From contig JAZRCT010000040.1 in the NCBI GenBank assembly GCA_045659905.1, positions 2,003 through 66,002 of the forward strand: DNA of 64,000 nt, read 5' to 3'. The position numbers and the translations under genes were made by a program. Source of the stretch: Eubacteriales bacterium (GTDB taxonomy: Bacteria > Bacillota > Clostridia > Oscillospirales > CAG-272). Shown here one piece after another: positions 4,001 through 50,981 of the stretch (within the stretch, counting starts at the first letter, position 1; every line of letters begins with the position of its first letter). The notes under the pieces were generated by a model. The model ran no database searches and was not told the DNA's origin. It saw nothing but the letters and a program-made list of their open reading frames with translations.

Positions 4001-7000
4001 TTAGCCAATTCGTGCGTTTCTGTACGCTTCGGCGCTCTGTGCGTAGCACATAAATCTCTCTACGAGAGTCTTAAGCTCCGCCTTCTTTTCGCCGCTGTAC
4101 TCGTTTACTACGAAATCGTAGTAAGCCGCAAGATTGTAAGCGCCGCCCGCAGCCGTGCCGTCGACCGTGAACTCTATATCGCCTGCAAGCACGTATGCAA
4201 AGCTCGTGACCTCAAGGTAATCGCCGTCAGTGTCCGTGCCTACGGTAAATTCAAGCGTCCTTGAGCCCTGCTTAAACTCGAATTCAGAGCTATCGGTCAC
4301 CGTGCCGTCAAGGTAGAAGCGCACCGACGGAACAGCCCCCAGCACGAAGGTTGCCTCGCCTATACCGCTTCCCGCCTCGGGCGTTACCGCAGTACCGAGG
4401 GTGGGCGTGTTATCGGCGTCGTAATCCGTGCCGAGAATTTCGTCTATTACCGCAAGGTCGGAATCGGTCTTGCCAAAGTATGCGTAAGCGCTCCTTACGT
4501 AAGAGAGGATATCCAGAAGAAGCTTCTCCTCTGCCGCAGCAGCGTTATTCGCCGTAGCGTTCTCTACGTATTTGACAAGACTCATAGTGTATCTGCCGCC
4601 TAGCGTTCCGCCGTCGGTGTCAACCTCTGCCAAAAGCACCATATCCGCAAGCGCTGCATCCGCAGAAAGCGATACCGTCAGCGTATAGTAAGCTGTGCCT
4701 CCAATGTCTGTTATAGGAAGCGAGGTAAGCGCTGCGCCCTCATAAACGGTGCCGTTAAGCGTAAGCTTTGTCAGCGCCGCTATATTTGAAACGTAGATAT
4801 TGTATCTTAAATCCGAATAGAGCGAGATGCTCGATTTTACGGTAAAGTCGCTGAGAGCCTTTACTCTCAGGCGGTAGGTTGCGGTAAGAGTGTTCTCGGA
4901 TTCCTTTATAAATTCCGCAGCTCCAAGCGCCGTCAAGTAATCGCCCGAGGGTGCTTCTGCGCTCTTGTCAAGAGTAATAGCAAGAAGCTTTCCGTCGGTG
5001 CTCCTGCCAAGCATTACGCCTCCAACAGAGTCAGCCTCAGTCGAGCTGAGAGTGAATTTATCAAGGCTTGCCGCCTTTATCTCACATCCGAGCACACTGG
5101 TATCGGAATGAATCTTGCCGTTGCCGCTGTCAAAGAGCTTCACACTCTTGTCTGCCGAGGTAACGTCAAACCTACAATTCTCGTAGGATACGTGGGTGTT
5201 AGCAGTAGCGTTCGGCGTGTTGGAATCCTGATAATAGTATACGAGCGAGGTCGCCGTACCCTTAACGCTGAAGCCAACGTCGACAAACTTAAGGCTTACC
5301 TCCTTATCCTCCATATAATAATCGTCTCTGTCGGGATAGGTCGTGCCGTCCTTGTTGTTGCCTGTCCAAGCCGCAAAGCTTACTATTCCTCTGTTGGTCA
5401 GAACCATACCGCCGTTCTTCATTACAATCTCGGTGGGGAAGATATTTGCATCGCCCGAGCCGCCCCAAGGCTTAATTGAGAACGGTATCGCCACTCTGTC
5501 ACTTGGTGCGGTAAGGGTAAATCCGCCAAAGTCGACGGTAAGCGTGCCCTGAATCTGAGCTACGTTATTGTATTGCTCGTTCGACGCCATAGCGTAATCT
5601 CTGCGCATAAGGATAAACGCCGCACGGGGATTGTCACCGTAGCTGCCGTCTGCGTAAACGTTGCCCTTCATATACTCCTTAGCTACATTAAGCGCACCGT
5701 CGTTTTCATACTTATCCGTAATATCAAGGAAGGTGTCGTCGCCTGCAATAAAGCCGCCTTGCTCGTTGAATACTGCGAAGGGATATGCGTTAGCATCCGC
5801 ATAGGTGTAAGGAATTTCTCCGTACTCGGTAGCTACCGCCTCGCCAAGACGGTATACGGTATTCGTGCCGCTGACGCTCTCCTTACCGAGAGTAAGCGCC
5901 TTGCCTGCCGCATTGTATACGACGAAGCTCGTGTGAGTGGGAGCTGTCACCGTTGCAGGAAGAATTATTGCGGTGTATTCTCCGCCGCCGCAGCGCTCGT
6001 AGGCAAGCGATTCGTCGCTCCTCATATTAGCAAGCTTGTAATTTGTAAGGTCGGGATACATAACGCTGCCGCCCGTGAACACTACCGTCGAGGTCATATT
6101 ATTTTTGTTGTCGTTGCAGTCAAGAAGTCTTGCGCCGCTCGGAGCGCCGGTAAAGTCTACCGTACAGTTATCGAAATAATAGCCAAGCACAAGCGAGCCG
6201 CCGGTCTTACCGTCAAACTCTGATACCATATACTTCGAGTTGCCTATAAACCTGAAGGTAACGTCGGTAAAGCAGAAATCGAGCGCCTTTGACTTAGTGC
6301 TGTCACCGTTTGAATGCTGAAGTCCAAAGAGAGGAAGCGTTGCCTTGGGCGAGCCGTCGTCGTTAAAGCCGATGCGGTTGTTTACGATAGTACCGTTTTT
6401 GAATTCTATCGTAGACTTGCCGAGATAGGAGGTATTGTTAAAGTTAACTCCGCAGTCTCCGATATACGTGGTGCTTTCCAGCGTATAGCCGTTAAGGTCT
6501 ACTACGATTTTACCTCTTGCCGCATTGAAATTAGAGCCTGCCGTCGAGGTATATTCGTATCTTAAAACTATCGTCGCAACCGTATTTTCCTTGCCCTCGT
6601 CCTTTAAGAGGTCTCTTGCCGCACCTAGAGCTGCGCTCCAGGAGGTATTTGCCGACTTAAAGGCAGTGTCCTCAAACACGAAGAAGGGATAGTCTACTGC
6701 CGAAAGGTTCTTTCCTTCGTTTATATAGGCGGTCTTATCGCCAAAGGTCATAGGAAGAAGCTCGTAGGTAGACTTAGTGCCGTCGTCCTTGACCTCTATA
6801 AAGTATCTCTTTCCCTCGGTAGTGTTAAACGAAGTCGTGCCGTGCAAATAATCCTTCGCATTGCTTACTGCTGTCATATAGGTATATTTGCCGTTATATT
6901 TACCAAAGGTAACGCTGTCGTTTTCCGTATTAAGCGAAGAAAGGATAACGTTTGAAATATTATCGCAAATTATTTCGCCGCCGTTTATCACGAGGTGGTT

Positions 7001-12781: not shown

Positions 12782-12824
12782 GAGGGGTACTGTGTTTCTT
12801 TTACAATACCCCTCGTTTTTTATT
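12782..12824 (+). terminator. orphan intrinsic-terminator-like hairpin (GAGGGGTA-17nt-TACCCCTC + GTTTTTTATT) with no upstream plus-strand gene
   Basis: 8-bp perfect stem followed by a T-run on the plus strand. The nearest genes are both on the minus strand. Confidence 0.5.
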
Positions 12825-12885
12825 CGGTTATGCCTAAATGCGAAAGCCTCTTGGGGCCCGAAAGCATTTTTGGGTGTATTTTTTA

Positions 12886-13000
12886 TTGCCACGTGGCAAT
12901 ATCACTCTTTGCGTGAGCAAAGAATATCACTGTCACCTAAGCGACAATATCACCCTCGCCGTGGTGAGGATATCACTGCCACCAAAGGTGGCTATATCCC
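12886..13000. repeat. hairpin-linker array A: 5 units of [5-7 bp-stem hairpin] + AATATCACT-like linker
   Basis: Units: TTGCCAcgTGGCAA-tATCACT; CTTTGCgtgaGCAAAG-AATATCACT; GTCACctaaGCGAC-AATATCACC; CCTCGCCgtGGTGAGG-ATATCACT; GCCACCaaaGGTGGC-TATATCCC. The array starts at the TAG stop of the 12992-13699 gene. Confidence 0.8.
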
Positions 13001-13699
13001 AATAAGGTGAGAATAGTGCGAAAACTCGCCGCCGACAAGCTCTTTCCCGTCGAAATACACGGTAGTAACCGAAGCGTTGTAAGGGAAGTCCACCTCCTGC
13101 GTCACACGCTCGGGGGCAACGCCGATAAGCCTTGCGTAAAAGGCTCTGATAACTGCTGCGTGAGCGGTAATCAGCACGCACTCGCCGATATGTTTTTTTG
13201 CTATCGAAAGCAGCGCATTGTGAAATCTCTCGGCTGCGGCGCTTACAGGCTCTCCATCGGGGGGTGTGAAAATGCCGAAATTCTGCTTCCAGCCTACGGT
13301 AAATTCCTCGCCGTATATCCTCTCTATATCCTCGATTTTGGAATTTTCCCACTTTCCGATATAGATTTCCCGAAGCTCACGCATCGGCACGATTTCTATA
13401 CCACGGTACTCCGCATTCGGACGGGCGGTATCATAGGCTCTTATCAAATCGCTTGAATATATAGCCGAAATCGGCTCGCCCTTGAGGAAATCCGCCGTCG
13501 CCTGCGCCTGGACGTGTCCTCTTTCGGAAAGTCCTAAGTCGGTATGACCGAGAAAGGCGTGCTCTGCATTGGCAATGCTTTCTCCGTGACGCACCACGAG
13601 CAGTCGAGTGCTATATCTTTCGTCTACGAAAAGCGGTGTCATATCACGCTGAATACCGCTCTCGCTATCCTTTATTTCTTCGGTAATTATCTCTTTCAT
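12992..13699 (-). CDS. histidine phosphatase family protein (phosphoglycerate-mutase-like)
   Basis: 235-aa ORF with the LLVVRHGESIANAEHAFLGHTDLGLSERG (RHG catalytic) motif; GGAG before the ATG. Confidence 0.85.
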   Translation of the reverse strand: MKEIITEEIKDSESGIQRDMTPLFVDERYSTRLLVVRHGESIANAEHAFLGHTDLGLSERGHVQAQATADFLKGEPISAIYSSDLIRAYDTARPNAEYRGIEIVPMRELREIYIGKWENSKIEDIERIYGEEFTVGWKQNFGIFTPPDGEPVSAAAERFHNALLSIAKKHIGECVLITAHAAVIRAFYARLIGVAPERVTQEVDFPYNASVTTVYFDGKELVGGEFSHYSHLIGI

Positions 13700-14119
13700 A
13701 AAGCTCCATTCTGATTGCCGATATAATAGGCATCTTATAAGCAGTCGTTGTATTTTTCGGGAATTGAGCCGCCCCGCCTCGGCATAAATGCGGCTAAAAA
13801 GGATAAGTCAATCCTCAAAGCGGTGCTGCCGACACGCACTTTCAAAAAAGCTTCTCAAAGTCGAACGGCGGCAAAAATTCGTAACTTTTCGTAATTTCAC
13901 GAGTGCATATCCTTGTGAATTTTTATTCACCGCCAATAAGGACACTTTTTCGAAAAATCTCCCGTCAAATAAAAGCGTGTTTTGCAAGTTCAAAGCACAA
14001 GAGCGGTAGCCGTGCCCCTTGCCGAATCAAAAGCAAAATCCCAAAGCTCCACCTCGCTTTCGGTAAGGGTCTCCACAAGCGCCGACTTGTACCAACGAAT
14101 GACGAGCAAGCGCCCCAAA

Positions 14120-14376
14120 GAATCCGCCCGATAGTTCGAGATAGCAAATCCGTAACCAAAAAAGGATAAATCCACCCGATTCAACTCCAAATCCGTCGGC
14201 TTTGTCTCAAAATCCGTCCACTTTAATAATAAATCCGTCCCGTTCAGACGAAAATCCACCCAATTTAATGGCAAATACACCCGCTTTAGTGAAAGTACGC
14301 CAGCCTTAGCTAAAAGTACGCACGCTTTAGCAATAAATACGCAGTCTGATAAGAAAAATCCCGCAATAAAGCACGG
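14120..14376. repeat. 21-bp tandem array I (~12 degenerate units, consensus AAATCC(R)(Y)CC-N11)
   Basis: Unit starts at 14146, 14168, 14189, 14210, 14231, 14252, 14273, 14292, 14313, 14335 and 14356 (spacings 22,21,21,21,21,21,19,21,22,21). Confidence 0.8.
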
Positions 14377-15010
14377 ACAACCCCACAATAAACTACAAAT
14401 ATTTAAATCAAAAGCAACAACACGGATATTATACCACCAAACCGAAGCAATGTCAATAAACGCAAAGCAGCGCCGGCGTCAGCGTCTGTGTCAGAAGTTC
14501 CGCACCAAAAATAAGGCGCAATTCAAAGCGGTCATCGCCGCATCTCGCAAGAGGAAAGGTCGGGGCGAGACGAAGCAAAATCAATTCGGAATCCAAAGCA
14601 TAAATCAACAGCCAAATCAAATAAAAAGGCTAAGTAATCCACCACGCAAAATAGAGCATTTTTTCTTTCCGTTTTTCTAAAATCAGCGCCATAAAATTCT
14701 GAATTTTCCGCATATCACAACCTCAATTATACAAAACTTTTTACCGCATATTTTCGTAATATTTTGGAATTTTTCGCAAAAATCAGAAAAATTCTTCAAA
14801 AAACGCTCAAAAAAACAAGGAGCAGCTAAAACCGTGACAATTTTTACCATATTTAACCATATTTTCCCATTTTCGTAGCAAAATGTATATCAGAGCCAAA
14901 AAATCCGCCCACCCCGAAGCTTGGCGCATGCACGGTCAAAATCTAAGCTGCCACAGCGCCTGCGACATTTTTTTGCACTGCTCCGTAGGTCTTTTCAGCG
15001 CTCTGTTGAA

Positions 15011-15181
15011 TTTTTTAAGAGTTTTATTGGCTTTTCGAGTGATAAATCAGCTTTTTAGCATTTTTTCGTTTCCTGAGGCGTTTTTTCGGCTTTTTGTTCG
15101 TTTTTTCATTAAAATAAAGCTTTTTTGCTGTATTTTCTCGCCGTAGTGTGGCGTTTTCGCCCATATTTTTTCTATTTTGTT
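15011..15181. repeat. helically phased T-tracts (T4-T6 every ~10-11 bp); predicted intrinsically curved DNA
   Basis: T-tract starts at 15011, 15022, 15032, 15052, 15061, 15069, 15081, 15091, 15101, 15121, 15133, 15154, 15166 and 15175. Confidence 0.7.
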
Positions 15182-15364
15182 TGAAAAATGCGTTCTCACG
15201 ATACAAATATCGTCTCAAGGCTATCTCCAAGGCAATTTACGGTCGCAAAAAGCCGCTTCAAAGCCGCAAAGAGCCCCTTAATTGTCAAAAACGCCGCTAC
15301 CCGAACTTTTATATCAATCAAGAATCTCCTGCCGATGCCAAGCGGTTTTTTAGCGTATCCTTAT

Positions 15365-15482
15365 AAAAAATTGCAAAATCACCTCAAAAAGCGCCTGTTT
15401 TTTCCTTGTAAAGCAAAAAATCTTTAAAAAATCCCCTAAAATTCGCAAAAAAATCACCCAAAATCCGCAAAATTGCGCCAAA
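15365..15482. repeat. helically phased A-tracts (A3-A7 every ~10-11 bp) ~90 bp upstream of parS-1
   Basis: A-tract starts at 15365, 15375, 15386, 15415, 15426, 15438, 15447, 15460, 15469 and 15480. Confidence 0.7.
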
Positions 15483-15570
15483 TCGGGTGCTAAATCAGCC
15501 GAGCCTTAGGCGCTTAAGCCTTAATTGCATATTCAAGGGAAATTCAAAGGGCAGACTGTTTATCAGGCAA

Positions 15571-15586
15571 TGTTTCACGTGAAACA
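15571..15586. promoter_or_regulatory. parS: parS site 1 (TGTTTCACGTGAAACA), ParB/Spo0J binding site
   Basis: Perfect 16-bp palindrome matching the Firmicute parS consensus tGTTNCACGTGAAACa. It extends to the 20-bp palindrome AATGTTTCACGTGAAACATT. Confidence 0.9.
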
Positions 15587-15793
15587 TTAAAATCCAGGCA
15601 AAAACAGCGAAAAAATATATTTCCCCGCCAAATCCAGGTTGTTTCAAGTGAATTGTCCCCTTATTTACCTTAAAACCGAATTGAGCGAGATTTTGCCGCA
15701 AAAATATGGGGGATTCGTGAGCTTACGGCTAAAAAGGGAACTCAAAAGCTTTTACGGCAAGAATGTAGCAGAATTCAATTGATAAAATCCAAT

Positions 15794-15809
15794 TGTTTCA
15801 CGTGAAACA
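15794..15809. promoter_or_regulatory. parS: parS site 2 (TGTTTCACGTGAAACA)
   Basis: Identical 16-mer 223 bp from site 1, flanked by imperfectly symmetric AAATC(C)AAT arms. A degenerate relative (TGTTTCAAGTGAATTG, 4 mismatches) lies at 15640-15655. Confidence 0.9.
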
Positions 15810-15973
15810 TTGATTTCCCCATCACGATTCGCCCGGAAACAAGAAAAGCCACAAAGCATAAATAAAAAATCGCCAAAAACGCAAAATTTCACAAGCTTCA
15901 CCCAAAATCACCTCAAAGATTACTCCAAAACCGCTTCGAAACACCTATAAAATGCTATAAACCCCAAGCTTAT

Positions 15974-16105
15974 ACTCGGATTGTAACACAGATTGCAACT
16001 CAGATTAAAACTCATATCAAAGCTCGTATTAAAACTCATATTAAAGTCAGTATTAGAACTCCGATTAAAGCTTCAACAAAGACTGCTTCAATTCCGTCCA
16101 ATTCA
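15974..16105. repeat. 12-bp tandem array (~10 degenerate units, consensus ACTCRKATTAAA)
   Basis: actcggattgta/acacagattgca/actcagattaaa/actcatatcaaa/gctcgtattaaa/actcatattaaa/gtcagtattaga/actccgattaaa/... read directly. Confidence 0.8.
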
Positions 16106-16420
16106 GCAAAAACGCCGAAATTTGTACAAAAACCAGTTAAAATACGCCTTGCAGTAAAAATTATCGCATTAAATTGCAAAAAATCGTAGCGTTTAACCGC
16201 AATTTCCGCAAAACGTCTCAGCTCACCGCTCGCAATTTCTCGGAAGTCAAGCCCAAGCCCGCTAAAACTCAGACCAAGGGTTTGCAGCACAGCAAAAGAA
16301 CACAGCCCTGCCGCATACGAACTCAATCACAAACGCCAACTCGAGAAAAATCGCACTCAAAGCTCAAAATCCAACCCATCATAACAATTTCGATATAACC
16401 AAAGTCAGAGTCGTTTTGCT

Positions 16421-16660
16421 AAAAAGCTCAATTCAGAAACGTTTTAGCAAAAAATCTTGATTCAAAGGCGTTTCGGCAAAAAGCTCAATTCAGAGGCACT
16501 TCAACGTGGCAAAAGATTAACGAAAGGGCATTTTGGTTTAAAAATTTCGCTTCAACGGCAATTTCGCTTCGAAAACCTATTCAGAAGAAGGATACTGCTT
16601 AAAAACTTGTCAAAAAATCATTTTTCCAGCAAAAGCCCTCAGTATAACCGGAATTTCACC
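16421..16660. repeat. ~30-bp tandem array (8 degenerate units, each opening with A4-A6)
   Basis: Unit starts at 16421, 16449, 16478, 16511, 16540, 16572, 16601 and 16631, e.g. AAAAAGCTCAATTCAGAAACGTTTTAGC / AAAAAGCTCAATTCAGAGGCACTTCAACGTGGC. Confidence 0.75.
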
Positions 16661-16693
16661 GTCGGCTCGCATTTCTTCGTGCCGTTCTTTGTG

Positions 16694-16860
16694 CTTAGGG
16701 TAGTTTTCTTGCTGCTTAAGCTAGGATTATGCGCTTAAGGTGGGGTCCTCGACGCTTAAGCCGGCTTTCTTGGCGCTTAAGACGGGTTTCTCGGCGCTTA
16801 AGGCAGGGTTATCGGTGATTAAGCAGCTTTCCGAAGGGCGCTTCGCCTTTTAATTGTTTG
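16694..16860. repeat. 21-bp tandem array II (8 units built on GCGCTTAAG)
   Basis: CTTAAG-like cores at 16694, 16715, 16734, 16755, 16776, 16797, 16818 and 16841 (spacings 21,19,21,21,21,21,23). Confidence 0.8.
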
Positions 16861-17065
16861 GCAGCCGTTTCCGCCTCATTCCGTCATAAAATCCCCGACA
16901 GACAACTTATTTTGACGCATTTCGACATAAATTTGGTATTAGTCTGCGCTCTCTTTTAGTTTTCCATTTTTTACCATAAGTTATCAAAAATATAAAAATT
17001 CCAAGCTATGACACGCAAAAGTAGGTCTATTTCTGGATTTTTTGAAAAAAACGTCGATTTACCGA

Positions 17066-17094
17066 TTGACTTTTTCCTTTTATTACTATATAAT
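17066..17094 (+). promoter_or_regulatory. sigma-A-type promoter of parA-parB (TTGACT-17-TATAAT)
   Basis: -35 TTGACT at 17066-17071, a 17-nt spacer, and -10 TATAAT at 17089-17094, ~110 nt upstream of the parA ATG. Confidence 0.7.
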
Positions 17095-17201
17095 CATTAT
17101 ATAACATATATATTAATCATTTAATAATGCATAAGTGTGGTTTTTGCACGATATTTCATTTGCATAGCTATCACTTACAAAAGGAGTATATAACAAAGCT
17201 T

Positions 17202-17975
17202 ATGGGCAAAATCGTTTCTTTCTCCAACCAAAAGGGCGGAGTCGGCAAGACGACCTCTTGCGTGAACATATCGGCACAGATTGCCAACAAGGGCAAAAAG
17301 GTTCTTATGATTGATATGGATCCTCAGGGCAACGCCACGAGCGGACTTGGACTTCCGAAGTCTAAAATCAAGAAGACCATTTACGACGTCGTTATCGGCA
17401 AATGCTCTATGGAGGATGCTATAATAAAGACGAGGTTTAAGAATCTTTCGGTAGTACCCGCTACGATAAACCTTGCAGGCGCAGAGCTTGAGCTTCACGA
17501 CCTCGAGGAGGCTGCGGACGAGAATCTCAATTTCTTTAATAAGGAAATAAGCTCGGTTAAGGACGATTACGACTACATATTTATAGATTGCCCTCCCTCG
17601 CTCGGTATGCTTACCGTAAAGGCGCTTTCGGCGTCTGACGGCGTAGTAATTCCTATGCAATGCGAGTTCTATTCGCTTGAGGGTATGTCGCAGCTTTTCA
17701 ACACGATAAAGCGCATCCATCAGCTTTTCAATCCCTCGCTTCGTGTAGTGGGAATTCTTCTTACTATGTATAACGGCAGACTTACGCTTACAAATCAGGT
17801 AGTAGCAGAGCTTAGAAAATATTATCAGGACAAGCTCTTTAAGGTGCCGATTTCAAGGACGGTCAGAATCTCGGAAGCCCCCGGCTACGGTGAGCCTATT
17901 TGCTATCACGACCCTTACGGCAAGGGCTCGCTTGAATACGCAGCGGTAGCAAAGGAGCTTATGACGAGAATTTAA
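17202..17975 (+). CDS. parA: chromosome partitioning ATPase ParA/Soj
   Basis: MGKIVSFSNQKGGVGKTT (deviant Walker A). AAGGAG lies upstream of the ATG at 17202; the ORF-track start at 17127 adds an implausible N-terminus. Confidence 0.93.
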   Translation: MGKIVSFSNQKGGVGKTTSCVNISAQIANKGKKVLMIDMDPQGNATSGLGLPKSKIKKTIYDVVIGKCSMEDAIIKTRFKNLSVVPATINLAGAELELHDLEEAADENLNFFNKEISSVKDDYDYIFIDCPPSLGMLTVKALSASDGVVIPMQCEFYSLEGMSQLFNTIKRIHQLFNPSLRVVGILLTMYNGRLTLTNQVVAELRKYYQDKLFKVPISRTVRISEAPGYGEPICYHDPYGKGSLEYAAVAKELMTRI

Positions 17976-18045
17976 GCCGTAGGCAAAAGCCCCCGAACAT
18001 CTTACAAATACTCGCCCTTGCGGCGGCAGAAACGGAGAACTAAAA

Positions 18046-18935
18046 TGCCAAGAAAGAACAGAGGCCTCGGCAGAGGCATTGACGCTATATATCTTGAAAA
18101 TGCGCTCGACAATATGGGCGGCACAGGCGAAAACACTATCACTATGCTGAATCTCGGAATGGTTGACCCCAAGAGCGACCAGCCGAGAAAATATTTCGAT
18201 AAGGAAGCGCTTGAGGCACTCTCCGAGTCCATTAAGCTTAACGGACTTCTTCAGCCTATTATCGTACGTGAATACGCCGACGACAGATATCAGATAATCG
18301 CAGGCGAGAGAAGATTCAGAGCCTCAAAGCTTGCGGGACTCGAAGAAATCCCCGCAGTTATTCTCGACAGAGACGACAGAGAAGCCGCAGAGCTTTCACT
18401 TATCGAGAATATCCAAAGAGAGGACTTGAATCCCGTAGAGGAGGCGCTTGCATACAGAGCGCTTATCGAAAACCACTCGCTCACTCAGGAGGAGCTTTCG
18501 GCAAGAATAGGCAAGAGCAGAAGCGCAATTGCCAACTCTATGCGTCTTATCGACCTTCCCGACGAGGTGCTTGAAATGGTTGCTAACCGAGATATCTCGG
18601 CAGGTCACGCAAGAGGACTTCTCGGTCTTAAGGACAGAGCCAATATGCTCCCCCTCGCCAATAAAATAGTAGAGTACGACCTTTCGGTAAGACAGCTTGA
18701 GGAGGAGGTAAAGCGAATCAACCGCCAAAAGCCTCCCGTAGAAAACGAAGTAGAGCTTCCTCTCGTTGATTACTTTAGAGAGATGGAGCTTAAAATTCAA
18801 TCGCATCTTGGCAGAGTAGTAAAGATTCAGGGCAAGGGCAAGAAGAAGTCCGTAACCCTCTTTTACGAGGACAACGAGGACCTCGACGAGCTTCTTAAGA
18901 CGATATGCGGCAAGGATTTCCTTGACGAGGTATAA
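18046..18935 (+). CDS. parB: chromosome partitioning protein ParB/Spo0J
   Basis: MPRKNRGLGRGIDAIY..., the IAGERRFRASKLAGL box and an HTH region. It lies directly downstream of parA; GGAG precedes the ATG at 18046. Confidence 0.93.
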
Positions 18936-19051: not shown

Positions 19052-19870
19052 ATGCTCAAAGAATTTTACCACAAATATATCGAACTTAATCTTAAGGATT
19101 ACCCAAATATAGGACTTGACCTTGAGATAAACAAGCTTCTTTTCTTCGTCTTTCTCGCCCTTATTGCGGCATCGGTTTTCGCAAGCTATATTCAGGCAAG
19201 CATTGCCCTTATGGTAAAGAAGCTGCTGAGAACCTCCTCCTTCAATGAGGAAAGCTCAAAGACGCTTGCCGACCTCGGACTTGATAAGCACAAGACGCTG
19301 AAATTTGCTCTTACGAGAGCGACAGGCTCGGCAGCTCTTATTATAAGAGAGGTCGGCAAGCGTACACCGACCTACGAGGAGTATATGGATATCGAGCGCC
19401 GTGAAAAAGAACAGAAGAAAGAGAAGAAAAAGCAAAAGCGTGCTAACCGCCCCTCCTTCTTGTCCTCGCTGAAAAAGCTCGACAGCATAAATAGTCAGCC
19501 AGCGTCAAAAGAGAGTAATTCAATAAGCGTCGCACCCGAAGCTATCACGAAAGAAAGCACCAACGTCGCAACCGCACCCGAGAAAATCGCTGAGGCTTCA
19601 ATCACTCCTGAGGGAAGCGCCGACACCGCTTGCGCAAAGGAAGCCGTATCCGCAAAAGAGCTTCTTCGCAGAGCCGCACCCGATTTTGATACGGCAAAAT
19701 TTTACATTCCAAGCGATATGGAGGAGCGTGCGCTCAGATATTACAACACCAAGCAAGGCTCGGTTGTAAAGACCGTGCTTTCCTGTCTCGGGCTTCTCGC
19801 CTTTTATATCGCCCTCGTCTTTTTGATGCCGACGGCGCTTTCGGCGCTAAGCTCGCTTCTCGGGGGTTAA
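19052..19870 (+). CDS. hypothetical membrane protein with a Lys/Glu-rich low-complexity linker
   Basis: 272-aa ORF with AAGGAG before the ATG, hydrophobic segments near both termini, and a KEQKKEKKKQKR stretch. No family recognised. Confidence 0.6.
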   Translation: MLKEFYHKYIELNLKDYPNIGLDLEINKLLFFVFLALIAASVFASYIQASIALMVKKLLRTSSFNEESSKTLADLGLDKHKTLKFALTRATGSAALIIREVGKRTPTYEEYMDIERREKEQKKEKKKQKRANRPSFLSSLKKLDSINSQPASKESNSISVAPEAITKESTNVATAPEKIAEASITPEGSADTACAKEAVSAKELLRRAAPDFDTAKFYIPSDMEERALRYYNTKQGSVVKTVLSCLGLLAFYIALVFLMPTALSALSSLLGG

Positions 19871-19872
19871 TT

Positions 19873-20613
19873 ATGGCTTCAAGCAAAAAAGTATTTATAT
19901 ATATGCTGACCGCCGAGGAAGGCTCAATTACCGACGCCGAGCTTGATATGCTCTCCGCAGCTCTGCCAGAGGCGCTTTCTGCAAGGTGCGAGGCGGCAAA
20001 CGCCAAGGAGCTAAGGCACGACCGAATTCTCGCCTACACCGCTCTTATGTACGCGCTCTACGAGGCAGGTCACGACCCTGACAATATCGGATTTTCATTC
20101 TCGGAGCTTGGAAAGCCAAGTATACCCAATTCGGACTACAACGTATCAATGTCGCACGCAGGCGGAATCGGCATTGCGGCAATTTCAGGTGACCTTGACC
20201 TCGGAATTGATATCGAGCTTCTTGACGAAAAAACCGCTACCACTCTCCAGCGTGTCTGCAAGCGCTTCGTACCCGATTTTTATCCCGAGCCAAGCTCTCT
20301 TGCCGACTGCATTTTTGACGACGAGCCGAGCTTCACCCCAGACCTTGAAGTGAAGCTTTGCGAGCTTATACCGAAAAGGCAGGAAGGAAGGCTCTATCTT
20401 GAAAAATCAACCGCACGCTGCTGTACGGGGCTTGAATCCTCAAAGGCTGAAAAATGGACCTGCGCCGAGGCGCTCCTCAAGCTTGACGGCAGAGGCTTCA
20501 CCGCCCTCCCACAGCTTGCTGCGATAAGAGAAAGCGCCCACCTTTACTCAACGGCAGTAAAGCCTCACGGCAAAAGCTCCCTCCTCGCCGTTTCTCTCGC
20601 AACGAAACAATAA
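19873..20613 (+). CDS. 4'-phosphopantetheinyl transferase superfamily protein (Sfp-like)
   Basis: SMSHAGG...LGIDIE and WTCAEALLKLDG (W/F-x-x-K/A-E-A-x-x-K) motifs. The start is coupled to the upstream stop (TAATTATG). Confidence 0.7.
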   Translation: MASSKKVFIYMLTAEEGSITDAELDMLSAALPEALSARCEAANAKELRHDRILAYTALMYALYEAGHDPDNIGFSFSELGKPSIPNSDYNVSMSHAGGIGIAAISGDLDLGIDIELLDEKTATTLQRVCKRFVPDFYPEPSSLADCIFDDEPSFTPDLEVKLCELIPKRQEGRLYLEKSTARCCTGLESSKAEKWTCAEALLKLDGRGFTALPQLAAIRESAHLYSTAVKPHGKSSLLAVSLATKQ

Positions 20614-20680
20614 AAATTTTAAAAAAAGGGGCTGTCACATAAGTATTTAATAAAGGGACTTTGCAGCCAAAGTCCTCCTT

Positions 20681-20714
20681 ACACCCCGAAAGCATTTTGG
20701 GGTGTGTTTTTTTA
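20681..20714 (+). terminator. intrinsic terminator ACACCCC-11nt-GGGGTGT + GTTTTTTTA
   Basis: 7-bp GC-rich stem with a T7 run, 68 nt after the stop of the 19873-20613 gene. Confidence 0.8.
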
Positions 20715-20881
20715 TCCAATGCGTCAAGCTTTGGACTTCATCCAAGCGTAAGTCTTGGACTTAATCCATCGAAGATGGACTTCACCCGAGCGTAAGCGAG
20801 GATATCACTGCCACATTAGTGGCAATATCACTCTTTGCGGGAGCAAAGAATATCACTCCTCGCCGTGGCGAGGAATTTCCC
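20715..20881. repeat. hairpin-linker array B: 3 units [TCCAxx hairpin]+CTTMA followed by 4 units [hairpin]+AATATCACT
   Basis: TCCAA-11-TTGGA-CTTCA; TCCAAGcgtaagtCTTGGA-CTTAA; TCCATCgaaGATGGA-CTTCA; (degenerate)-ATATCACT; GCCACattaGTGGC-AATATCACT; CTTTGCgggaGCAAAG-AATATCACT; CCTCGCCgtGGCGAGG-AATTTCCC. Confidence 0.8.
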
Positions 20882-20957
20882 ATTTCGCCCTGAAAGTATT
20901 TTAAGCAGTTATTCGCTTTTATTTACATATGAGTAAATAATTGTTTACTCCTCAAGA

Positions 20958-21000
20958 CAAAAAAGCAAGAGATTTGACAAAGTCTGTCTCTTGCTTTTTG
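20958..21000. terminator. bidirectional intrinsic terminator (AAGCAAGAGA-14nt-TCTCTTGCTT flanked by A-run and T-run)
   Basis: 10-bp perfect stem. On the minus strand it is followed by TTTTTTG, directly downstream of the rnj stop at 21018. Confidence 0.8.
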
Positions 21001-21017
21001 TCTATTTTTTACTTTCT

Positions 21018-36126: not shown

Positions 36127-37905
36127 ATGACAATAGTACTTGATGTAATTTTGCCCTTGCTTTGCGGACTGTCGTTATTCCTTTTCGGAATGGACGTAAT
36201 GGGCGATGCGCTGAAAAAGAGCGCAGGCAACGGACTTAAGACAATCCTTGGCAAAATGACCTCGAATCCCGTGAAGGGATTTCTTTTAGGACTTGGCGTT
36301 ACCGCCATTATTCAGTCCTCGTCGGCTACCACCGTTATGGTCGTCGGCTTCGTTAACTCCGGCACTATGACGCTTGTGCAGTCGGTTGGAGTTATTATGG
36401 GCGCTAACGTAGGTACGGCGGTCACCGCCTGGCTTACCGCTCTTTCGGGCATAGAGGGCGGCGGACAGAGCGCTTTCAATTACCTCGACCTGCTTAAGAC
36501 CGACTCCTGGATGCCTATACTTGCGGTAATAGGTATTTGCCTCATTCTTTTTGTAAAGAGAGGAAAGAAGCGTGATGTAGGCTTCATTCTCGTGGGCTTT
36601 GCCGTGCTTATGGTAGGTATGTCGCTTATGTCGGATTCGGTAAAGGGAATCGACCAGGACGCCCTTGGCTCTATTCTTACCACCTTTAAGAATCCCATAC
36701 TCGGCGTGCTTGCAGGTATGATACTTACAGCGATAGTTCAGTCCTCGAGCGCATCTATCGGTATTCTTCAGGCGCTCTCGGTTACGGGCGCTATCGACTT
36801 CGGTATGGCAATTCCGATTGTTCTCGGACAGAATATAGGTACCTGTATTACCGCAATGCTTTCCGCAATAGGCGCAAGCCGCAACGGTAAGCGTGCCGCA
36901 ATAGTGCATCTTTATTTCAATATTATCGGCGTTATATTCTGGCTTTCTACCTTCTATATAGTAAATGCGTTTGCACACTTCCCATTCCTTGAGATGCCTA
37001 TCAATATGTGGGGTATAGCAGCCGTTCACACGATATTCAAGATACTCTCCGTAGCTCTTATTTCTCCCTTCTACCGTCAGCTTGAGCGTCTTGCAAGGCT
37101 TACTATCAGAGAGAAGAAGGACGAGGGTGAGACCGTCAATATGCTTGACGAGCGTCTTTTCGCTACTCCCGCCGTAGCGGCAAGCAGCGCAACCACCGCT
37201 ACCTACAAGATGGCAGAGCTTGCCTGCGATTCTATAAAGCGCGCTATGACGCTGCTTGACGAATTTGACCCGAAGCTTGCCGACGAGATAAGGGATATCG
37301 AGGGCAAGGTTGATACCTACGAGGATACTCTCGGAAGCTATCTTGTAAAGCTTTCGAGTGTTGATATGACTGAGCGTGACTCTTTGCAGATTACGAAGCT
37401 TCTTCACATTATCGGCGACCTTGAGAGAATTTCCGACCACGCTGTAAATATCGTAGAGAGCGCAGAGGAAATGAAGGACAAGAAGCTTTCCTTCTCCGAC
37501 GAGGCAAAGCGTGAGCTTAAGGTTATGAGAGCCGCTATTTCGGATATCGTTACTATGACATATCAGGGCTTTATTTCAAACGACGTAAAATGTGTCCTCG
37601 AGGTAGACCCGCTTGAGGAGGTCGTTGACAGAATCCGTGATACAATCAAGAAAAATCACGTCAACAGACTCAAAAAGAGCGAATGCACCATAGAGCACGG
37701 CTTCGTTTTATCCGACCTGCTTACCAACTTTGAGCGAGTTTCTGACCACTGCTCGAATATTGCGGGCTGTGTATTTGAAATATCGAGCTTCGATGCGCTC
37801 GACCTTCACAAATACTCGCAGCAGCACAAGAGCGGCGACGAGGCGTTTGACGCTAAGGTAAATGAATTTACCGAAAAGTATAAGCTTGCGTTTGAGGAAG
37901 CGTAA
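36127..37905 (+). CDS. Na/Pi cotransporter family protein with C-terminal PhoU-like domains
   Basis: 592 aa; duplicated QSSSA(T/S) motifs (IIQSSSATTVMVVGF / IVQSSSASIGILQAL) and a PhoU-like helical C-terminus (ISDHAVNI, VSDHCSNI). Confidence 0.88.
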   Translation: MTIVLDVILPLLCGLSLFLFGMDVMGDALKKSAGNGLKTILGKMTSNPVKGFLLGLGVTAIIQSSSATTVMVVGFVNSGTMTLVQSVGVIMGANVGTAVTAWLTALSGIEGGGQSAFNYLDLLKTDSWMPILAVIGICLILFVKRGKKRDVGFILVGFAVLMVGMSLMSDSVKGIDQDALGSILTTFKNPILGVLAGMILTAIVQSSSASIGILQALSVTGAIDFGMAIPIVLGQNIGTCITAMLSAIGASRNGKRAAIVHLYFNIIGVIFWLSTFYIVNAFAHFPFLEMPINMWGIAAVHTIFKILSVALISPFYRQLERLARLTIREKKDEGETVNMLDERLFATPAVAASSATTATYKMAELACDSIKRAMTLLDEFDPKLADEIRDIEGKVDTYEDTLGSYLVKLSSVDMTERDSLQITKLLHIIGDLERISDHAVNIVESAEEMKDKKLSFSDEAKRELKVMRAAISDIVTMTYQGFISNDVKCVLEVDPLEEVVDRIRDTIKKNHVNRLKKSECTIEHGFVLSDLLTNFERVSDHCSNIAGCVFEISSFDALDLHKYSQQHKSGDEAFDAKVNEFTEKYKLAFEEA

Positions 37906-37906
37906 A

Positions 37907-38107
37907 GCGTGATACGCTTAGCAGAGTATCACGCTAACTCTATTCGCCTCCGGCGAGTTATATTGCTACGCAGTGATATTCGGATTATGACGAGTGATAT
38001 TTGCTCCGCAAGCTTAGGGCGAATAGAATATAACTGAAGCCACAAGGCTTCAATATCACTGTCGCTGAGCGACAATATAACTCTTTGCGTTAGCAAAGAA
38101 TATCACT
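37907..38107. repeat. hairpin-linker array C: linker motif present in both orientations (GTGATA x3 then TATCAC/TATAAC x5)
   Basis: GCGTGATAC-10-GTATCACGC hairpin (37907-37934); AGTGATATT at 37972 and 37993; 9-bp inverted repeat CTATTCGCC/GGCGAATAG (37940/38018); then AATATAACT-GAAGCCacaaGGCTTC-AATATCACT-GTCGCtgaGCGAC-AATATAACT-CTTTGCgttaGCAAAG-AATATCACT. Confidence 0.8.
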
Positions 38108-38117
38108 TTATACTAAC

Positions 38118-38191
38118 AAAAAAAGAGAGATCATTTCGGTGCACAAGTCCATTTTTAAGGACTCGTGAATACCGATTTGCTCTCTCTTTTT
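38118..38191. terminator. long imperfect bidirectional terminator hairpin (A-run ... AGAGAGA / TCTCTCT ... T-run)
   Basis: AAAAAAAGAGAGAtcaTTTCGGTgCACaaGTCC-atttttaa-GGACtcGTGaatACCGAtttgcTCTCTCTTTTT, between the convergent 36127-37905 (+) gene and ilvA (-). Confidence 0.75.
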
Positions 38192-38314: not shown

Positions 38315-39511
38315 TTAAACAACTATTTTAAAGCCTGCGCTGACCAGTGCGTTCTTTATTTGCTCTATGTGCTCGAAGTTTCTCGTCTCCATAATAATTC
38401 TTAAGTAACAGCCGTTTACGTCCGAGCCCTCGTTTGCCCTTTCGTGATGCACCGAGGTGACGTTGCCGCCGAGTTCGGATATAATTCTCGATACGTCGGT
38501 AAGCTGTCCCGGCTTATCTACAAGCTCTACTGTGAGCTGATAGTTTCTTCCCGACATAAGAAGACCGCGCTTTATTACCCTTGAGAGAATAGTAACGTCG
38601 ATATTTCCGCCTGAGAGCAGACATACCGTCTTTTTGCCCTCAAGGTCGAGCTTGCCGAACATAGCTGCCGCTACCGCTACCGCTCCCGCACCCTCGGTGA
38701 CGAGCTTGTGCTTTTCCATAAGGGCGAGAATTGCCGCTGAAATCTCGTCGTCGGTGACGGTGACTATCTCGTCTACGTACTTTTCGCAAATTTCATAAGT
38801 AAGGTCGCCGGGGCGTTTTACCGCAATGCCGTCTGCAATGGTTCTTACCGAAGGAAGCTCCTCAATTTTGTGGTCCTCTACCGAATTTTTCATAGAGGGC
38901 GCACCGCTTGCCTGAACGCCGTATACCTTTACTCTCGGGTTTATGCTCTTTATAGTATAAGCAACGCCCGAAATAAGTCCGCCGCCGCCGATAGGCACTA
39001 TAATGGCGTCGAGGTCGGGAAGCTGGTCGGCGATTTCAAGCGCTATCGTGCCCTGACCTGCAATTACGTCGGGGTCGTTAAAGGGGTGTATAAAGGTGTA
39101 GCCGCATTCGTCACGAAGCGAGATAGCCTTATTGTAGGCGTCATCGTAAACGCCCTTGACAAGACAAACCTCAGCGCCGTAGCTCTTGGTAGCCTCTATT
39201 TTGGAAATGGGCGCACCGTCGGGCAGACAGATTACCGCTTTTATGCCGTTCTTCTGTGCGGCAAGCGCTACGCCCTGTGCGTGATTTCCCGCAGAGCAGG
39301 CGATTACTCCGCGCTTTTTCTCCTCGGGGCTAAGCTTCGACATTTTGTAGTAAGAGCCTCTTACCTTAAACGAGCCCGTGGTCTGAAGATTCTCGGTCTT
39401 AAGATAAAGCTCAAGTCCCTCTTTAAGCTTGGGAGCGTAAATTATATCGGTCTTGCGGACTACGTCCTTCAGCACGTAGCTCGCTCTGTATACGTTATCA
39501 AGTGTAAGCAT
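38315..39511 (-). CDS. ilvA: threonine ammonia-lyase (threonine dehydratase) with a C-terminal ACT-like domain
   Basis: 398 aa; PLP-lysine motif TGSFKVRGSYYKM and the GGGGLISG loop. Confidence 0.92.
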   Translation of the reverse strand: MLTLDNVYRASYVLKDVVRKTDIIYAPKLKEGLELYLKTENLQTTGSFKVRGSYYKMSKLSPEEKKRGVIACSAGNHAQGVALAAQKNGIKAVICLPDGAPISKIEATKSYGAEVCLVKGVYDDAYNKAISLRDECGYTFIHPFNDPDVIAGQGTIALEIADQLPDLDAIIVPIGGGGLISGVAYTIKSINPRVKVYGVQASGAPSMKNSVEDHKIEELPSVRTIADGIAVKRPGDLTYEICEKYVDEIVTVTDDEISAAILALMEKHKLVTEGAGAVAVAAAMFGKLDLEGKKTVCLLSGGNIDVTILSRVIKRGLLMSGRNYQLTVELVDKPGQLTDVSRIISELGGNVTSVHHERANEGSDVNGCYLRIIMETRNFEHIEQIKNALVSAGFKIVV

Positions 39512-41859: not shown

Positions 41860-41988
41860 TAAGCCCTAGCCTTGCCGGCTTGGCGCTTTACTTAAGCTTT
41901 CGTTTGGCGATTTACACGCTTCACTTAACTTTAGCTTGGCGCTTCGCTTAGCTTTAGCTCCGTGCTTTTCTTAGCTTAGCGCTTCACC
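41860..41988. repeat. degenerate GGCGCTT/CTTAGC-rich low-complexity repeats filling a 170-bp spacer inside the leu operon
   Basis: tggcgctttacttaagc.../tggcgatttacacgcttcac.../ttggcgcttcgcttagctttagc... read directly. It resembles the GCGCTTAAG array at 16694-16860. Confidence 0.6.
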
Positions 41989-42492
41989 TTACTTTATAGC
42001 GCCTCGCTTTATGGACTCGATAAGTCCGCCGTTTTCAATTATTTTCTGTATAAACTCGGGGAAGGGCTTAGTCTTGAAGCTATTTCCCGTGGTCTTGTTG
42101 TAAATCATACCGAGGTCAAGGTCGCATACCACCTCGTCACCCTCGCTTATCTCCTCTGCCGCCTCGGGACATTCGAGAATGGCAAGTCCTATGTTTATCG
42201 AATTGCGGTAAAAAATTCTTGCGAAGCTCTTGGCTATGACGAGCGAAATTCCGCTTGCCTTAATAGCGATTGGGGCGTGCTCTCTTGACGAGCCGCAGCC
42301 GAAATTCGAGCCTGCTATCATAATATCTCCCGCATTTACCTTGTTCTTAAAATCAAGGTCGATATCCTCCATACAGTGAGAGGCAAGCTCCTTGTGGTCT
42401 ATGGTGTTGAGATATCTTGCGGGGATAATTACGTCGGTGTCGACGTTATCGCCGTACTTTATTGCTTTTCCTTGGAAATTCATACCTGACAA
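41989..42492 (-). CDS. leuD: 3-isopropylmalate dehydratase small subunit
   Basis: 167 aa; [14 protein letters not shown] motif. Confidence 0.95.
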
Positions 42493-50653: not shown

Positions 50654-50702
50654 GCAAGGGTAAACCGACGGAAAAAAGAGCAGACTCGGCGTGATGTCCT
50701 TA

Positions 50703-50842
50703 ACGGACAAAGCACGCGGTTAAATCCGTCTTCGACGGGTGAAATCCACCTATGGTGGATGAAATCGCTTTCGCAATGAAATCCTGCTTCGCAGGGTTAA
50801 GATAGACAAGCTTGATTTCATCGTTGCCTGCAACGATTTCAT
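50703..50842. repeat. hairpin-linker array D with ATGAAAT linker (4 forward units, then 2 ATTTCAT inverted)
   Basis: CCGTCttcGACGG-GTGAAAT; CCACCtatGGTGG-ATGAAAT; CGCTTTCGCA-ATGAAAT; CCTGCttcGCAGG-GTTAAGAT; ...ATTTCAT-CGTTGCctGCAACG-ATTTCAT. It lies between the ilvE terminator and the leuA promoter. Confidence 0.75.
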
Positions 50843-50851
50843 TGAACTAAC

Positions 50852-50884
50852 AAAAAAGAGCAGACGTACAAGATTTCGTCTTGC
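50852..50884 (-). terminator. intrinsic terminator after ilvE
   Basis: The minus strand reads GC(a)AGACG-aaatcttgta-CGTCTGC followed by TCTTTTTT. Confidence 0.6.
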
Positions 50885-50981
50885 GTATCTGCCCGTTTTT
50901 ATAATGATGTGCTTGTCACTGTAAAAGCGATTGCGCATAGCATACGCCTGTTCACGGCGGCGCTTGGCTTCGTAGGAAAAA

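Follow-up and report, generated by a model that had tools for sequence, protein, structure and literature searches.

A hairpin array behind a Na/Pi cotransporter gene as a probable copy of a modular repeat of gut Clostridia that includes Gut-1

Introduction

What kind of element strings small hairpins on a constant 9-base linker, reverses the orientation of that linker halfway along, and sits directly behind a gene? This question is raised by array C, an intergenic element of about 290 bp in a 64,000-nt stretch of DNA (hereafter the window, meaning the whole stretch that was analysed) from contig JAZRCT010000040.1 of a Eubacteriales bacterium (assembly GCA_045659905.1), where it follows a Na/Pi cotransporter gene. 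Comparison of its sequence with other genomes indicates that array C belongs to a fast-changing family of repeats in gut Clostridia, and that one half of this repeat entered the catalogues in 2010 under the name Gut-1. More specifically, we propose, with a probability of roughly 0.5, that it represents a full-length copy of a modular, dispersed intergenic hairpin-array repeat of Oscillospirales-type gut Clostridia that resembles repetitive extragenic palindromes (REP) and bacterial interspersed mosaic elements (BIME) and is located at transcript 3' ends by a mechanism that we infer.

Results

Array C combines two opposed hairpin arrays

The linker is strongly enriched in the window: AATATMACT occurs 11 times against 1.16 expected, a count reached in 0/100 shuffles, and all copies fall within array C and two further arrays, A (at ~12.9 kb) and B (at ~20.8 kb). 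The array C region also folds with z-scores of -7.0 on the + strand and -6.5 on the - strand. An origin by chance, as short inverted repeats gathered within an AT-rich spacer, has only the shortness of the motif in its favour; against it stand the motif count, the folding z-score and the repetition of the same 173-nt architecture in dozens of genomes, by which this explanation is already refuted, and we give it practically no weight.

A preliminary description, made from the letters of the window, had seen both linker orientations in a nested inverted-repeat layout, and this layout is real. In the left (L) half, a degenerate first linker (AACTCTATT) precedes three AGTKATATT linkers, AGTTATATT at 37956 and AGTGATATT at 37972 and 37993; the latter two had been noticed before, while the copy at 37956 had been overlooked. 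The hairpins of this half are CGCC/GGCG, GCTACGC, and a degenerate third (CGGAUUAUGACG). The L half is enclosed by a long-range helix, P1, which had been reported as a 9-bp inverted repeat starting at 37940 and in fact comprises 10 bp (100% complementary) from 37939. In the right (R) half we count four AATAT[AC]ACT linkers instead of the five claimed, and the three perfect hairpins between them are all present as described. The orientation of the linkers is therefore block-wise (LLLL RRRR), with 3-4 L modules followed by 3-4 R modules, and on the - strand the R half is itself a Gut-1-type array.

The 9-bp hairpin that follows the Na/Pi stop codon, H0, had been taken for a pair of inverted copies of the linker motif. 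The hairpin exists, but its arms are not instances of the motif: GTGATAC in H0 matches the linker at 6/7 positions, yet H0 is unchanged in a relative whose linker is ATGAATT, so that it must be a separate part. It is kept at orthologous loci (L127/L128 and L252), and also found at non-orthologous loci of other metagenome-assembled genomes (MAGs; L095, L112, L120).

On the other side, the T1 hairpin has 21-nt arms with 86% complementarity, a run of AAAAAAA to their left, and one of TTTTT to their right. It has the make-up of an intrinsic terminator (a G+C-containing hairpin with a T-run after it and an A-run before it), and its sequence looks like a predicted bidirectional terminator common to the convergent Na/Pi (+) and PALP/ACT (-) genes. 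T1 is missing from the output of our terminator scan because the scan was limited to loops of 8 nt. Scanning array C, we could not find any + strand promoter-like or terminator-like site between the Na/Pi stop codon and T1 (none terminator-like up to 38118). The array is therefore expected in the 3' untranslated region (UTR) of the Na/Pi mRNA, in agreement with the earlier prediction, made from its position upstream of the terminator.

Relationship to Gut-1

The Gut-1 motif (Rfam RF01706) consists of three hairpins separated by GUGAAAU (Weinberg et al., 2010; PMC2864571), a layout that array C fits with three short hairpins and a constant GUGAUAU-type linker. In a permissive Rfam scan (cmscan), the L half (37935-38005, + strand) matched the Gut-1 covariance model over model positions 1-77 with a score of 36.2 bits (E=1.7e-5 for the region of 501 nt), short of the 50-bit gathering cut-off. 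A Gut-1 scan of the whole window gave four matches, corresponding to arrays A, B, C, and a further array, D (Table 1). Homologous L halves in other MAGs, some of them with the same H0, reach 54-59 bits and are above the cut-off, and at locus L015 the R half passes as well, on the opposite strand, with 52 bits. The composite thus consists of two opposed Gut-1 instances plus a closing helix. Moreover, the 172-nt array C composite can be aligned over its full length to 28 others (mean column identity 69%), the Gut-1 seed alignment of Weinberg and colleagues (Stockholm file) holds GUGAUAU variants, and in the unannotated flanks of that file GGCGAAUAUAAUAUCAC followed by hairpins corresponds to an inverted R half. 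The membership of array C in Gut-1 is therefore supported at the sequence level by its architecture and by the homology of the whole locus to members scoring above the cut-off, despite its own sub-threshold score. The preliminary description had overlooked both this match and the recurrence of H0 and the terminator hairpin with arrays elsewhere.

Table 1. Parts of array C, its flanking genes, and the other arrays of the window, with positions counted from the first letter of the window
Feature	Position	Strand	Remarks
Na/Pi cotransporter gene	36127..37905	+	Na_Pi_cotrans and PhoU domains; stop codon TAA 37903-37905
H0	37907..37934	+	9-bp hairpin, 10-nt loop; begins 1 nt 3' of the Na/Pi stop codon; arm GCGTGATAC 37907-37915 pairs with GTATCACGC 37926-37934 (inverted-repeat search)
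L half, Gut-1-type array	37935..38005	+	placed by linker positions and Gut-1 model match
Long-range helix P1	37939..38027	+	arms TCTATTCGCC 37939-37948 / GGCGAATAGA 38018-38027; inverted-repeat search and minimum free energy fold
R half	38027..38107	+	linkers at 38027, 38052, 38074, 38099
R-half hairpin	38036..38051		GAAGCC-ACAA-GGCTTC
R-half hairpin	38061..38073		GTCGC-TGA-GCGAC
R-half hairpin	38083..38098		CTTTGC-GTTA-GCAAAG
Spacer TTATACTAAC and T1 hairpin	38108..38191	.	T1 arms 38120-38140 / 38171-38191
PALP/ACT threonine-dehydratase-like gene	38315..39511	-	convergent with the Na/Pi gene
Array A	12884..12996	-	single-orientation Gut-1-type array, 5 hairpins
Array A, Gut-1 match	12894..12978	-	49.3 bits, below cut-off
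Array B	20712..20883	-	single-orientation array; TRF period 24
Array B, Gut-1 match	20797..20883	-	40.3 bits, below cut-off
Array D	50672..50900	+	composite; canonical Gut-1 linker
Array D, Gut-1 match	50717..50787	+	50.5 bits, passes cut-off

Gut-1 was rated 'RNA: Y', not cis-regulatory, and 'human gut only', while the text of the paper merely says that it is present in no sequenced organism (PMC2864571); its Rfam type is 'Gene; sRNA'. However, the model covers one half only, whereas array C has both, and the Gut-1 paper describes neither the R half, P1, H0, and T1 nor the multi-copy dispersal, 3' polarity, other linker families, and rapid turnover reported below. In contrast to the rating 'human gut only', the element is also found here in goat, sheep, roe deer, water buffalo, and dairy cattle MAGs. 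A literature search for the linker sequences returned unrelated primer matches only, and no follow-up paper on Gut-1 was found in the literature searched. Composite architecture, gene polarity, alternative linker families, broad host range, and rapid turnover are thus new relative to the Gut-1 paper and the literature searched, and the unreported architecture casts doubt on the label of small RNA (sRNA) gene.

Architecture and distribution of the family

We scanned one genome per species for two linkers spaced 12-18 nt apart and analysed the first 120 matching stretches; the counts of composites, polarity, loops, and neighbours given below rest on loci among these listed matches. Genuine arrays with palindromic spacers make up 73 of the 120, from hosts labelled Acutalibacteraceae, Ruminococcus, Oscillospiraceae, Eubacteriales, and Clostridia, and from human, goat, sheep, roe deer, buffalo, and cattle sources. 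Among 120 listed matches on viral contigs only 1-2 were genuine arrays, and a phage origin was rejected on these grounds. Two other detectors were of little use: a generic search for runs of hairpins was too noisy (16 runs against 4-11 in shuffles), and one based on exact 6-mers was too strict, leaving arrays C and D undetected.

The composite recurs in dozens of MAGs of Acutalibacteraceae, Ruminococcus, and Oscillospiraceae, with a length of ~173 nt, and the orientation pattern of array C is accordingly reproduced at many other loci. The order that recurs is: H0; AGTT-N-TATTCGCC; the CGCC/GGCG hairpin; AGTKATATT, then GCTWCGC; twice AGTGATATT plus a hairpin; AGTTTNNNG GGCGAATA-N'; three times AATATCACT plus a hairpin; and a closing AATATCACT. 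The length from first to last linker is 170-180 nt in at least 29 distinct composites from at least about 28 MAGs. Alignment and RNAalifold folding of 29 composites give a consensus with an 11-bp long-range helix closing the left domain and six local hairpins, in which 21/40 predicted pairs show compensatory double changes. These include all three R-half stems, and the variable pair of P1 is AU in 13 composites, UA in 10, CG in 5, and UG in 1.

The basic module consists of a stem of 4-8 bp of free sequence with a C-G closing pair, a loop of 3-4 nt, and a constant linker of 7-9 nt. Three or four such modules running in the same direction correspond to the Gut-1 motif of Rfam; a complete element has H0, an L array, a centre, and an inverted R array, and T1 often comes after it. 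Within one array all linkers of both halves are the same, whereas they differ between arrays, even at one orthologous site. We could distinguish the linker families GTGATAT, GTGAAAT, ATGAATT, GTTATGA, TCGATAT, and TGAAG, several of which coexist in one genome. The element is multi-copy, with 4 arrays in the 64 kb of the window and arrays on several contigs per MAG among the matches listed; at locus L012, two copies have all L stems in common.

H0-type and T1-type hairpins are modules of their own that recur. The T1-type hairpins (AAAAAGAGAG...CTCTCTTTTT and AAAAAGAGCAG...CTGCTCTTTTT; window 38118-38191 and 50852-50900) are repeat families themselves, and turn up again at non-orthologous loci as well as in other species, in every case to the R side of an array (L255 ~4205-4255, L252 ~5990-6055, L095, L046, L071, L120, and L006). 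A local tandem duplication is seen at L100 (1021-1594), where two near-identical composites lie ~410 bp apart, with a 68-bp flanking direct repeat.

Genomic context and polarity

Arrays abut stop codons or terminators. In ~42/45 composites, the upstream gene is co-oriented and has its 3' end towards the H0/L side; it is a protein gene in 29 cases, where a distance of 45-60 nt typically separates the stop codon from the first linker, and a tRNA or tmRNA gene (Lys, Arg, Tyr, Thr, Gln, Cys, tmRNA) in 13, where H0 is the terminator. The gene beyond the R side shows no strand preference. Single-orientation arrays have a weaker bias, lying in Gut-1 orientation behind a co-oriented gene in 13/18 (13:5), and arrays A and B of the window conform to it.

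We could not find any recurrent neighbour: when the 728 neighbouring open reading frames (ORFs) in the 8-kb flanks were clustered, no family was present in more than 8 loci, and no transposase, recombinase, or REP-associated tyrosine transposase (RAYT) recurred near the arrays. The largest families span 7-8 loci only and probably reflect orthologous contexts. One of the genes seen, of ~126 aa (start MCYEVLIMADSILRDKSKEF...), lies directly after the R half at L011 (6152-6532) and at 6 other loci; by eye, its product resembles a four-helix-bundle protein of the '23S rRNA intervening sequence' type, and this association, too, may reflect orthologous contexts only.

Turnover at orthologous sites

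Orthologous loci were recovered via their flanking proteins, and identities given here are those of the flanking protein. Loci L001-L120 contain no orthologues of the window genes. An exact look-up of the Na/Pi protein and of the ilvE-like branched-chain amino-acid aminotransferase matched no record, and a metagenome scan for Na/Pi relatives gave only short or distant contigs without a usable downstream region.

At the Na/Pi site, the GTGATAT composite of the window (100%) is replaced in L127/L128 (96%, same synteny) by a composite with four ATGAATT and three AATTCAT linkers, other stems, and another T1, around which H0 and the right flank GTTTAGGCTTAGCC are retained. The site carries an array in one orientation whose CTTSA linkers of 5 nt resemble the left part of array B in L129/L130 (87%); H0, a GTTATGA / TCATAAC composite, and T1, with the right flank unchanged, in L252 (74%); and a TCGATAT array in L131 (73%).

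Array D, at the ilvE-like site, is absent in L254 (97%), which has only the 5' arm, H0, and the 3' arm; this comparison was read by eye, a pairwise MAFFT alignment having misplaced the indel. As L254 retains H0, it is not a clean empty site; insertion and deletion, or exchange through recombination at H0 and T1, are equally likely. In L255, an 85% relative, the site holds a GTTATGAG array and a T1 homologous to that of array C. Finally, at the RNase J site of array B no array is present in the 93% and 82% relatives, and the downstream gene differs. Synteny breaks right after the RNase J terminator (window 20614-21017 versus L256 3455-3555 and L257 4996-5096): these two relatives have a convergent AraC-family gene ~100 nt away, and the window has array B and other, unrelated genes at 19052-20613 without Pfam matches.

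Loop polarity

On the canonical strand, L-half loops are T..C in 60/96 and G..A in 0/96, while R-half loops are G..A in 68/125 and T..C in 1/125. Read on the AATATCAC strand, 53/92 triloops are C-GNA-G and 53/70 tetraloops C-GNNA-G (106/162 together), and the pair closing the hairpin is C-G in nearly all. Loop polarity therefore follows the orientation of the linker and not the transcript, meaning that the two halves are true inverted copies.

Other arrays and repeats in the window

Array A begins at the stop codon of a histidine-phosphatase gene (12992-13699, -), and array B is located between the terminators of convergent genes. The latter joins 3-4 modules with the GTGATAT linker to 3-4 modules of a second type with a 5-nt TGAAG/TTAAG linker. 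This left part (20712-20795; CTTCA/CTTAA on the + strand, UGAAG in Gut-1 orientation) has its counterpart at the Na/Pi site of the 87% relative (L129 11780-11860). Array D contains 4-5 RTGAAAT modules followed by 2 inverted ATTTCAT modules, together with an H0-like hairpin (50689-50717) and a T1 (50852-50900), and lies between exact copies of a direct repeat of 14 bp, AAAAAAGAGCAGAC, at 50672 and 50852; it also has ACTAACAAAAAAGAG of the spacer/T1 region in common with array C. The stems CTTTGC/GCAAAG, GTCRC/GCGAC, CCTCGCC/GGYGAGG, and GCCAC/GTGGC occur in arrays A, B, and C alike. A + strand terminator-like hairpin, CCCCGAAAGCATTTTGGGG followed by a T-run, is repeated beside arrays A (12790-12885) and B (20690-20716), away from the upstream gene, and no + strand gene that it could terminate exists at array A.

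By its RNase J and SpoVA genes, the window comes from a sporulating Firmicute, and it carries a dnaA-dnaN-recF-gyrBA region. Two further repeat regions were observed. The first, of 3.4 kb (13700-17126), has a GC content of about 0.40 and is A/C-rich on the + strand, and its sole ORF of at least 100 aa is an unsupported one of 132 aa with a TTG start and no Pfam match (13990-14388). Six or more different families of short direct repeats are present in it, one with a 21-bp unit ('CGCTTAAG + 13 nt') repeated 4.4 times at 16731-16823 and others with 24-bp and 28-bp units, and it lies just upstream of parA (17127-17975) and parB (18018-18935), ~15 kb from dnaA; from its sequence, it looks iteron- or centromere-like. 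The second is a non-palindromic 23-bp tandem repeat, CGCTTCACTTAGCTTTAGCTCCG, in 2.7 copies (41860-42000), between an isopropylmalate dehydrogenase-like gene and an Aconitase_C (small-subunit-like) gene.

Discussion

A role in cis at the 3' end of transcription units is suggested by the strong gene-relative polarity of the composites, by their internal asymmetry (H0 and P1 belong to the L side and T1 to the R side), and by their position, which is right behind stop codons and downstream of tRNA and tmRNA genes with high expression. The element would accumulate directly 3' of genes with a fixed polarity, as REP and BIME do, and its arrays would be gained, lost, or swapped over short evolutionary times. 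Once transcribed, a cluster of stable hairpins might shield the 3' end from exonucleases, or the array might serve as a fail-safe read-through barrier or insulator between adjacent units. The constant linker may represent an address for a family-specific trans factor, either protein or nucleic acid: the concerted change of linkers points to such a putative reader, which would in turn account for identical linkers within an array. We infer each of these elements, i.e. array transcription, the barrier or stabiliser role, and the linker-reading factor; anatomy, family membership, distribution, polarity, covariation, and turnover are seen in the sequences.

A number of observations weigh against this proposal. 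Composites behind tRNA genes follow a strong terminator and would thus rarely be transcribed; no linker-binding factor or transposase was found in the 8-kb flanks of the loci; and since several linker families occur per genome, a single factor per genome would be insufficient. The counts of G.U versus A.C (9:4 in R, 2:4 in L) are too few to name the strand. Moreover, the true inversion of the two halves fits a DNA-level unit better than a single RNA, and the mirrored, strand-polar loops are the chief argument for a DNA-level module as the unit of selection or propagation. Extra-stable DNA mini-hairpins with the motif d(GCGNAGC)/d(GCGNNAGC) have been described (PMC13037366; PMC3201870). The C-GNA-G and C-GNNA-G loops of the arrays carry the same signature, and reverse-complementing the second L module gives GCGAAGC or GCGTAGC, which are DNA mini-hairpin sequences, although mini-hairpins are physico-chemical motifs and not a genetic element. 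C-G-closed GNRA-type loops are favoured in RNA as well, so that the signature is no proof of a role at the DNA level.

Such a DNA-level unit might be selfish, non-autonomous mobile DNA similar to REPINs or to miniature inverted-repeat transposable elements (MITEs), in which the inverted arrays would be the two ends, recognised in a single-stranded or extruded state by a hairpin-specific enzyme whose gene lies elsewhere, with the element targeting hairpins or terminators at gene 3' ends with no function for the host. This would agree with the mirrored loop and linker polarity of the halves, the predominance of C-GNA-G and C-GNNA-G loops, the presence/absence and swapping of arrays between close relatives, the 14-bp direct repeat around array D, the likeness of stems between copies of one genome, the nesting of hairpins in hairpins, and an element at L046 that lies within a split terminator stem with CCCATGG on both sides. 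However, no transposase, recombinase, or RAYT recurs near the arrays, and there is no consistent target-site duplication: flanking direct repeats of 6-11 bp are scattered and at chance level at nearly all loci, the exceptions being L100, a tandem duplication, and array D with its 14 bp, and array C has no flanking direct repeat of this type. Copies in one genome are not near-identical, unlike recent MITE copies, the relative that lacks array D retains H0, and the strong orientation bias would demand polarity-sensing insertion. We consider this explanation possible, if on the unlikely side. By analogy with REP elements, it would not be exclusive of our REP/BIME-like proposal, and the two may well be compatible. 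Going further, we put forward as an unlikely idea that Gut-1 'RNAs' are halves of unrecognised self-propagating hairpin-array elements in Firmicutes rather than sRNA genes, whose linker address, on extruded or single-stranded DNA with C-GNA-G mini-hairpins, would be read by a putative enzyme or guide that inserts or exchanges arrays at hairpins or terminators behind genes. If so, all of an array could change in concert without leaving its site, H0 and the flanks remaining orthologous.

Two other explanations were considered. In the first, the linkers, recurring every 22-25 bp, would be sites on double-stranded DNA to which a nucleoid, partition, or topology protein binds, as gyrase or IHF does at BIMEs, and the hairpins would be cruciform-prone spacers; regular spacing, a constant linker in both orientations, and the enrichment behind highly transcribed tRNA/tmRNA genes (13/~45) are in line with this, but perfect stems with compensatory changes, the C-G closing pair, and strand-polar loops would all be left unexplained, and linker families differ within a genome and between close relatives, which makes it improbable. 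GTGAAAT also resembles a parS half-site, and the window adjoins parAB, dnaA, and gyrBA, but this likeness to parS or Noc sites concerns one linker family only and was treated as a coincidence. The remaining explanation takes the Rfam label at its word, as a stand-alone trans-acting sRNA gene, possibly a sponge displaying single-stranded GUGAUAU repeats. CsrB and RsmZ are protein-sponge RNAs of this kind, with single-stranded motifs repeated between hairpins, and the covariation of the stems and the published ratings (an RNA, and not cis-regulatory) also speak for it. Nevertheless, 4 copies occur in 64 kb and many per MAG among the matches listed, the arrays abut stop codons or terminators and leave no room for a promoter, they are lost or swapped between 93-97% relatives, half of each composite would be antisense to the motif, and the linker is not conserved between families. 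The sRNA-gene label is the one least compatible with copy number, context, and turnover, and we hold it to be very improbable.

In Oscillospirales genomes the element is widespread across many hosts, and it keeps its design even as arrays are replaced or lost between nearly identical genomes. The question thus shifts from the function of an sRNA to what maintains or spreads arrays with a concerted linker, and to whether they shape 3'-end formation in abundant gut Clostridia. Loci in filled, swapped, and empty states provide material for experiments and for the annotation of MAGs.

With respect to known systems, a CRISPR array was rejected, the 'repeat' having 9 nt (versus 23-47 bp), the 'spacers' being palindromes of 13-16 nt, and the neighbours being Na/Pi and PALP, with no cas genes. 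Integron attC sites, type III antitoxin repeats, promoter arrays, and small ORFs were also discarded, with no palindromic core sites, non-identical units, and poor matches to -10/-35 sequences.

MITEs of Firmicutes and Neisseria (BOX, RUP, Correia) are short, non-coding, intergenic elements with inverted repeats that are present or absent between strains. Our element resembles them in these respects, and its outer linkers are inverted (AGTKATATT ... AATATMACT), but it has no consistent target-site duplication, its copies are not near-identical, and its periodic hairpin-linker design and gene-relative polarity are not MITE features. In the REPIN-RAYT system, two inverted units spread together, several families coexist per genome, and recognition at the level of the hairpin is strand-specific, which would account for the mirrored loop polarity of the arrays. 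However, a REPIN has one hairpin per end, whereas here each end is a 4-module array, and no cognate Y1/HUH gene was found in the 8-kb flanks.

The closest comparison is with the REP and BIME of Enterobacteria, which are extragenic, hairpin-forming, multi-copy, clustered in both orientations, and variable between strains. They lie in 3' UTRs or between convergent genes, and have been proposed to function in mRNA 3'-end protection, termination, and gyrase binding; BIMEs bind gyrase or IHF. A REP is a conserved imperfect palindrome of ~35 nt with a GTAG/CGTC tag, alternating orientation, and a cognate RAYT (Y1 transposase). In array C, by contrast, conservation lies in the linker and the stems are of free sequence, a GTAG tag is missing, orientation is block-wise, and modules measure 13-16 nt in a Firmicute host, with no RAYT seen in the clustered 8-kb flanks. 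The resemblance to BIME-type REP clusters suggested in the preliminary description thus holds for behaviour, since the arrays are dispersed, extragenic, hairpin-based, multi-copy, homogenised within a lineage, and subject to rapid turnover, but not for membership, given their variable stems, constant linker, and block-wise orientation. The arrays fail the defining features of REP and BIME and, by analogy, would behave in a corresponding way.

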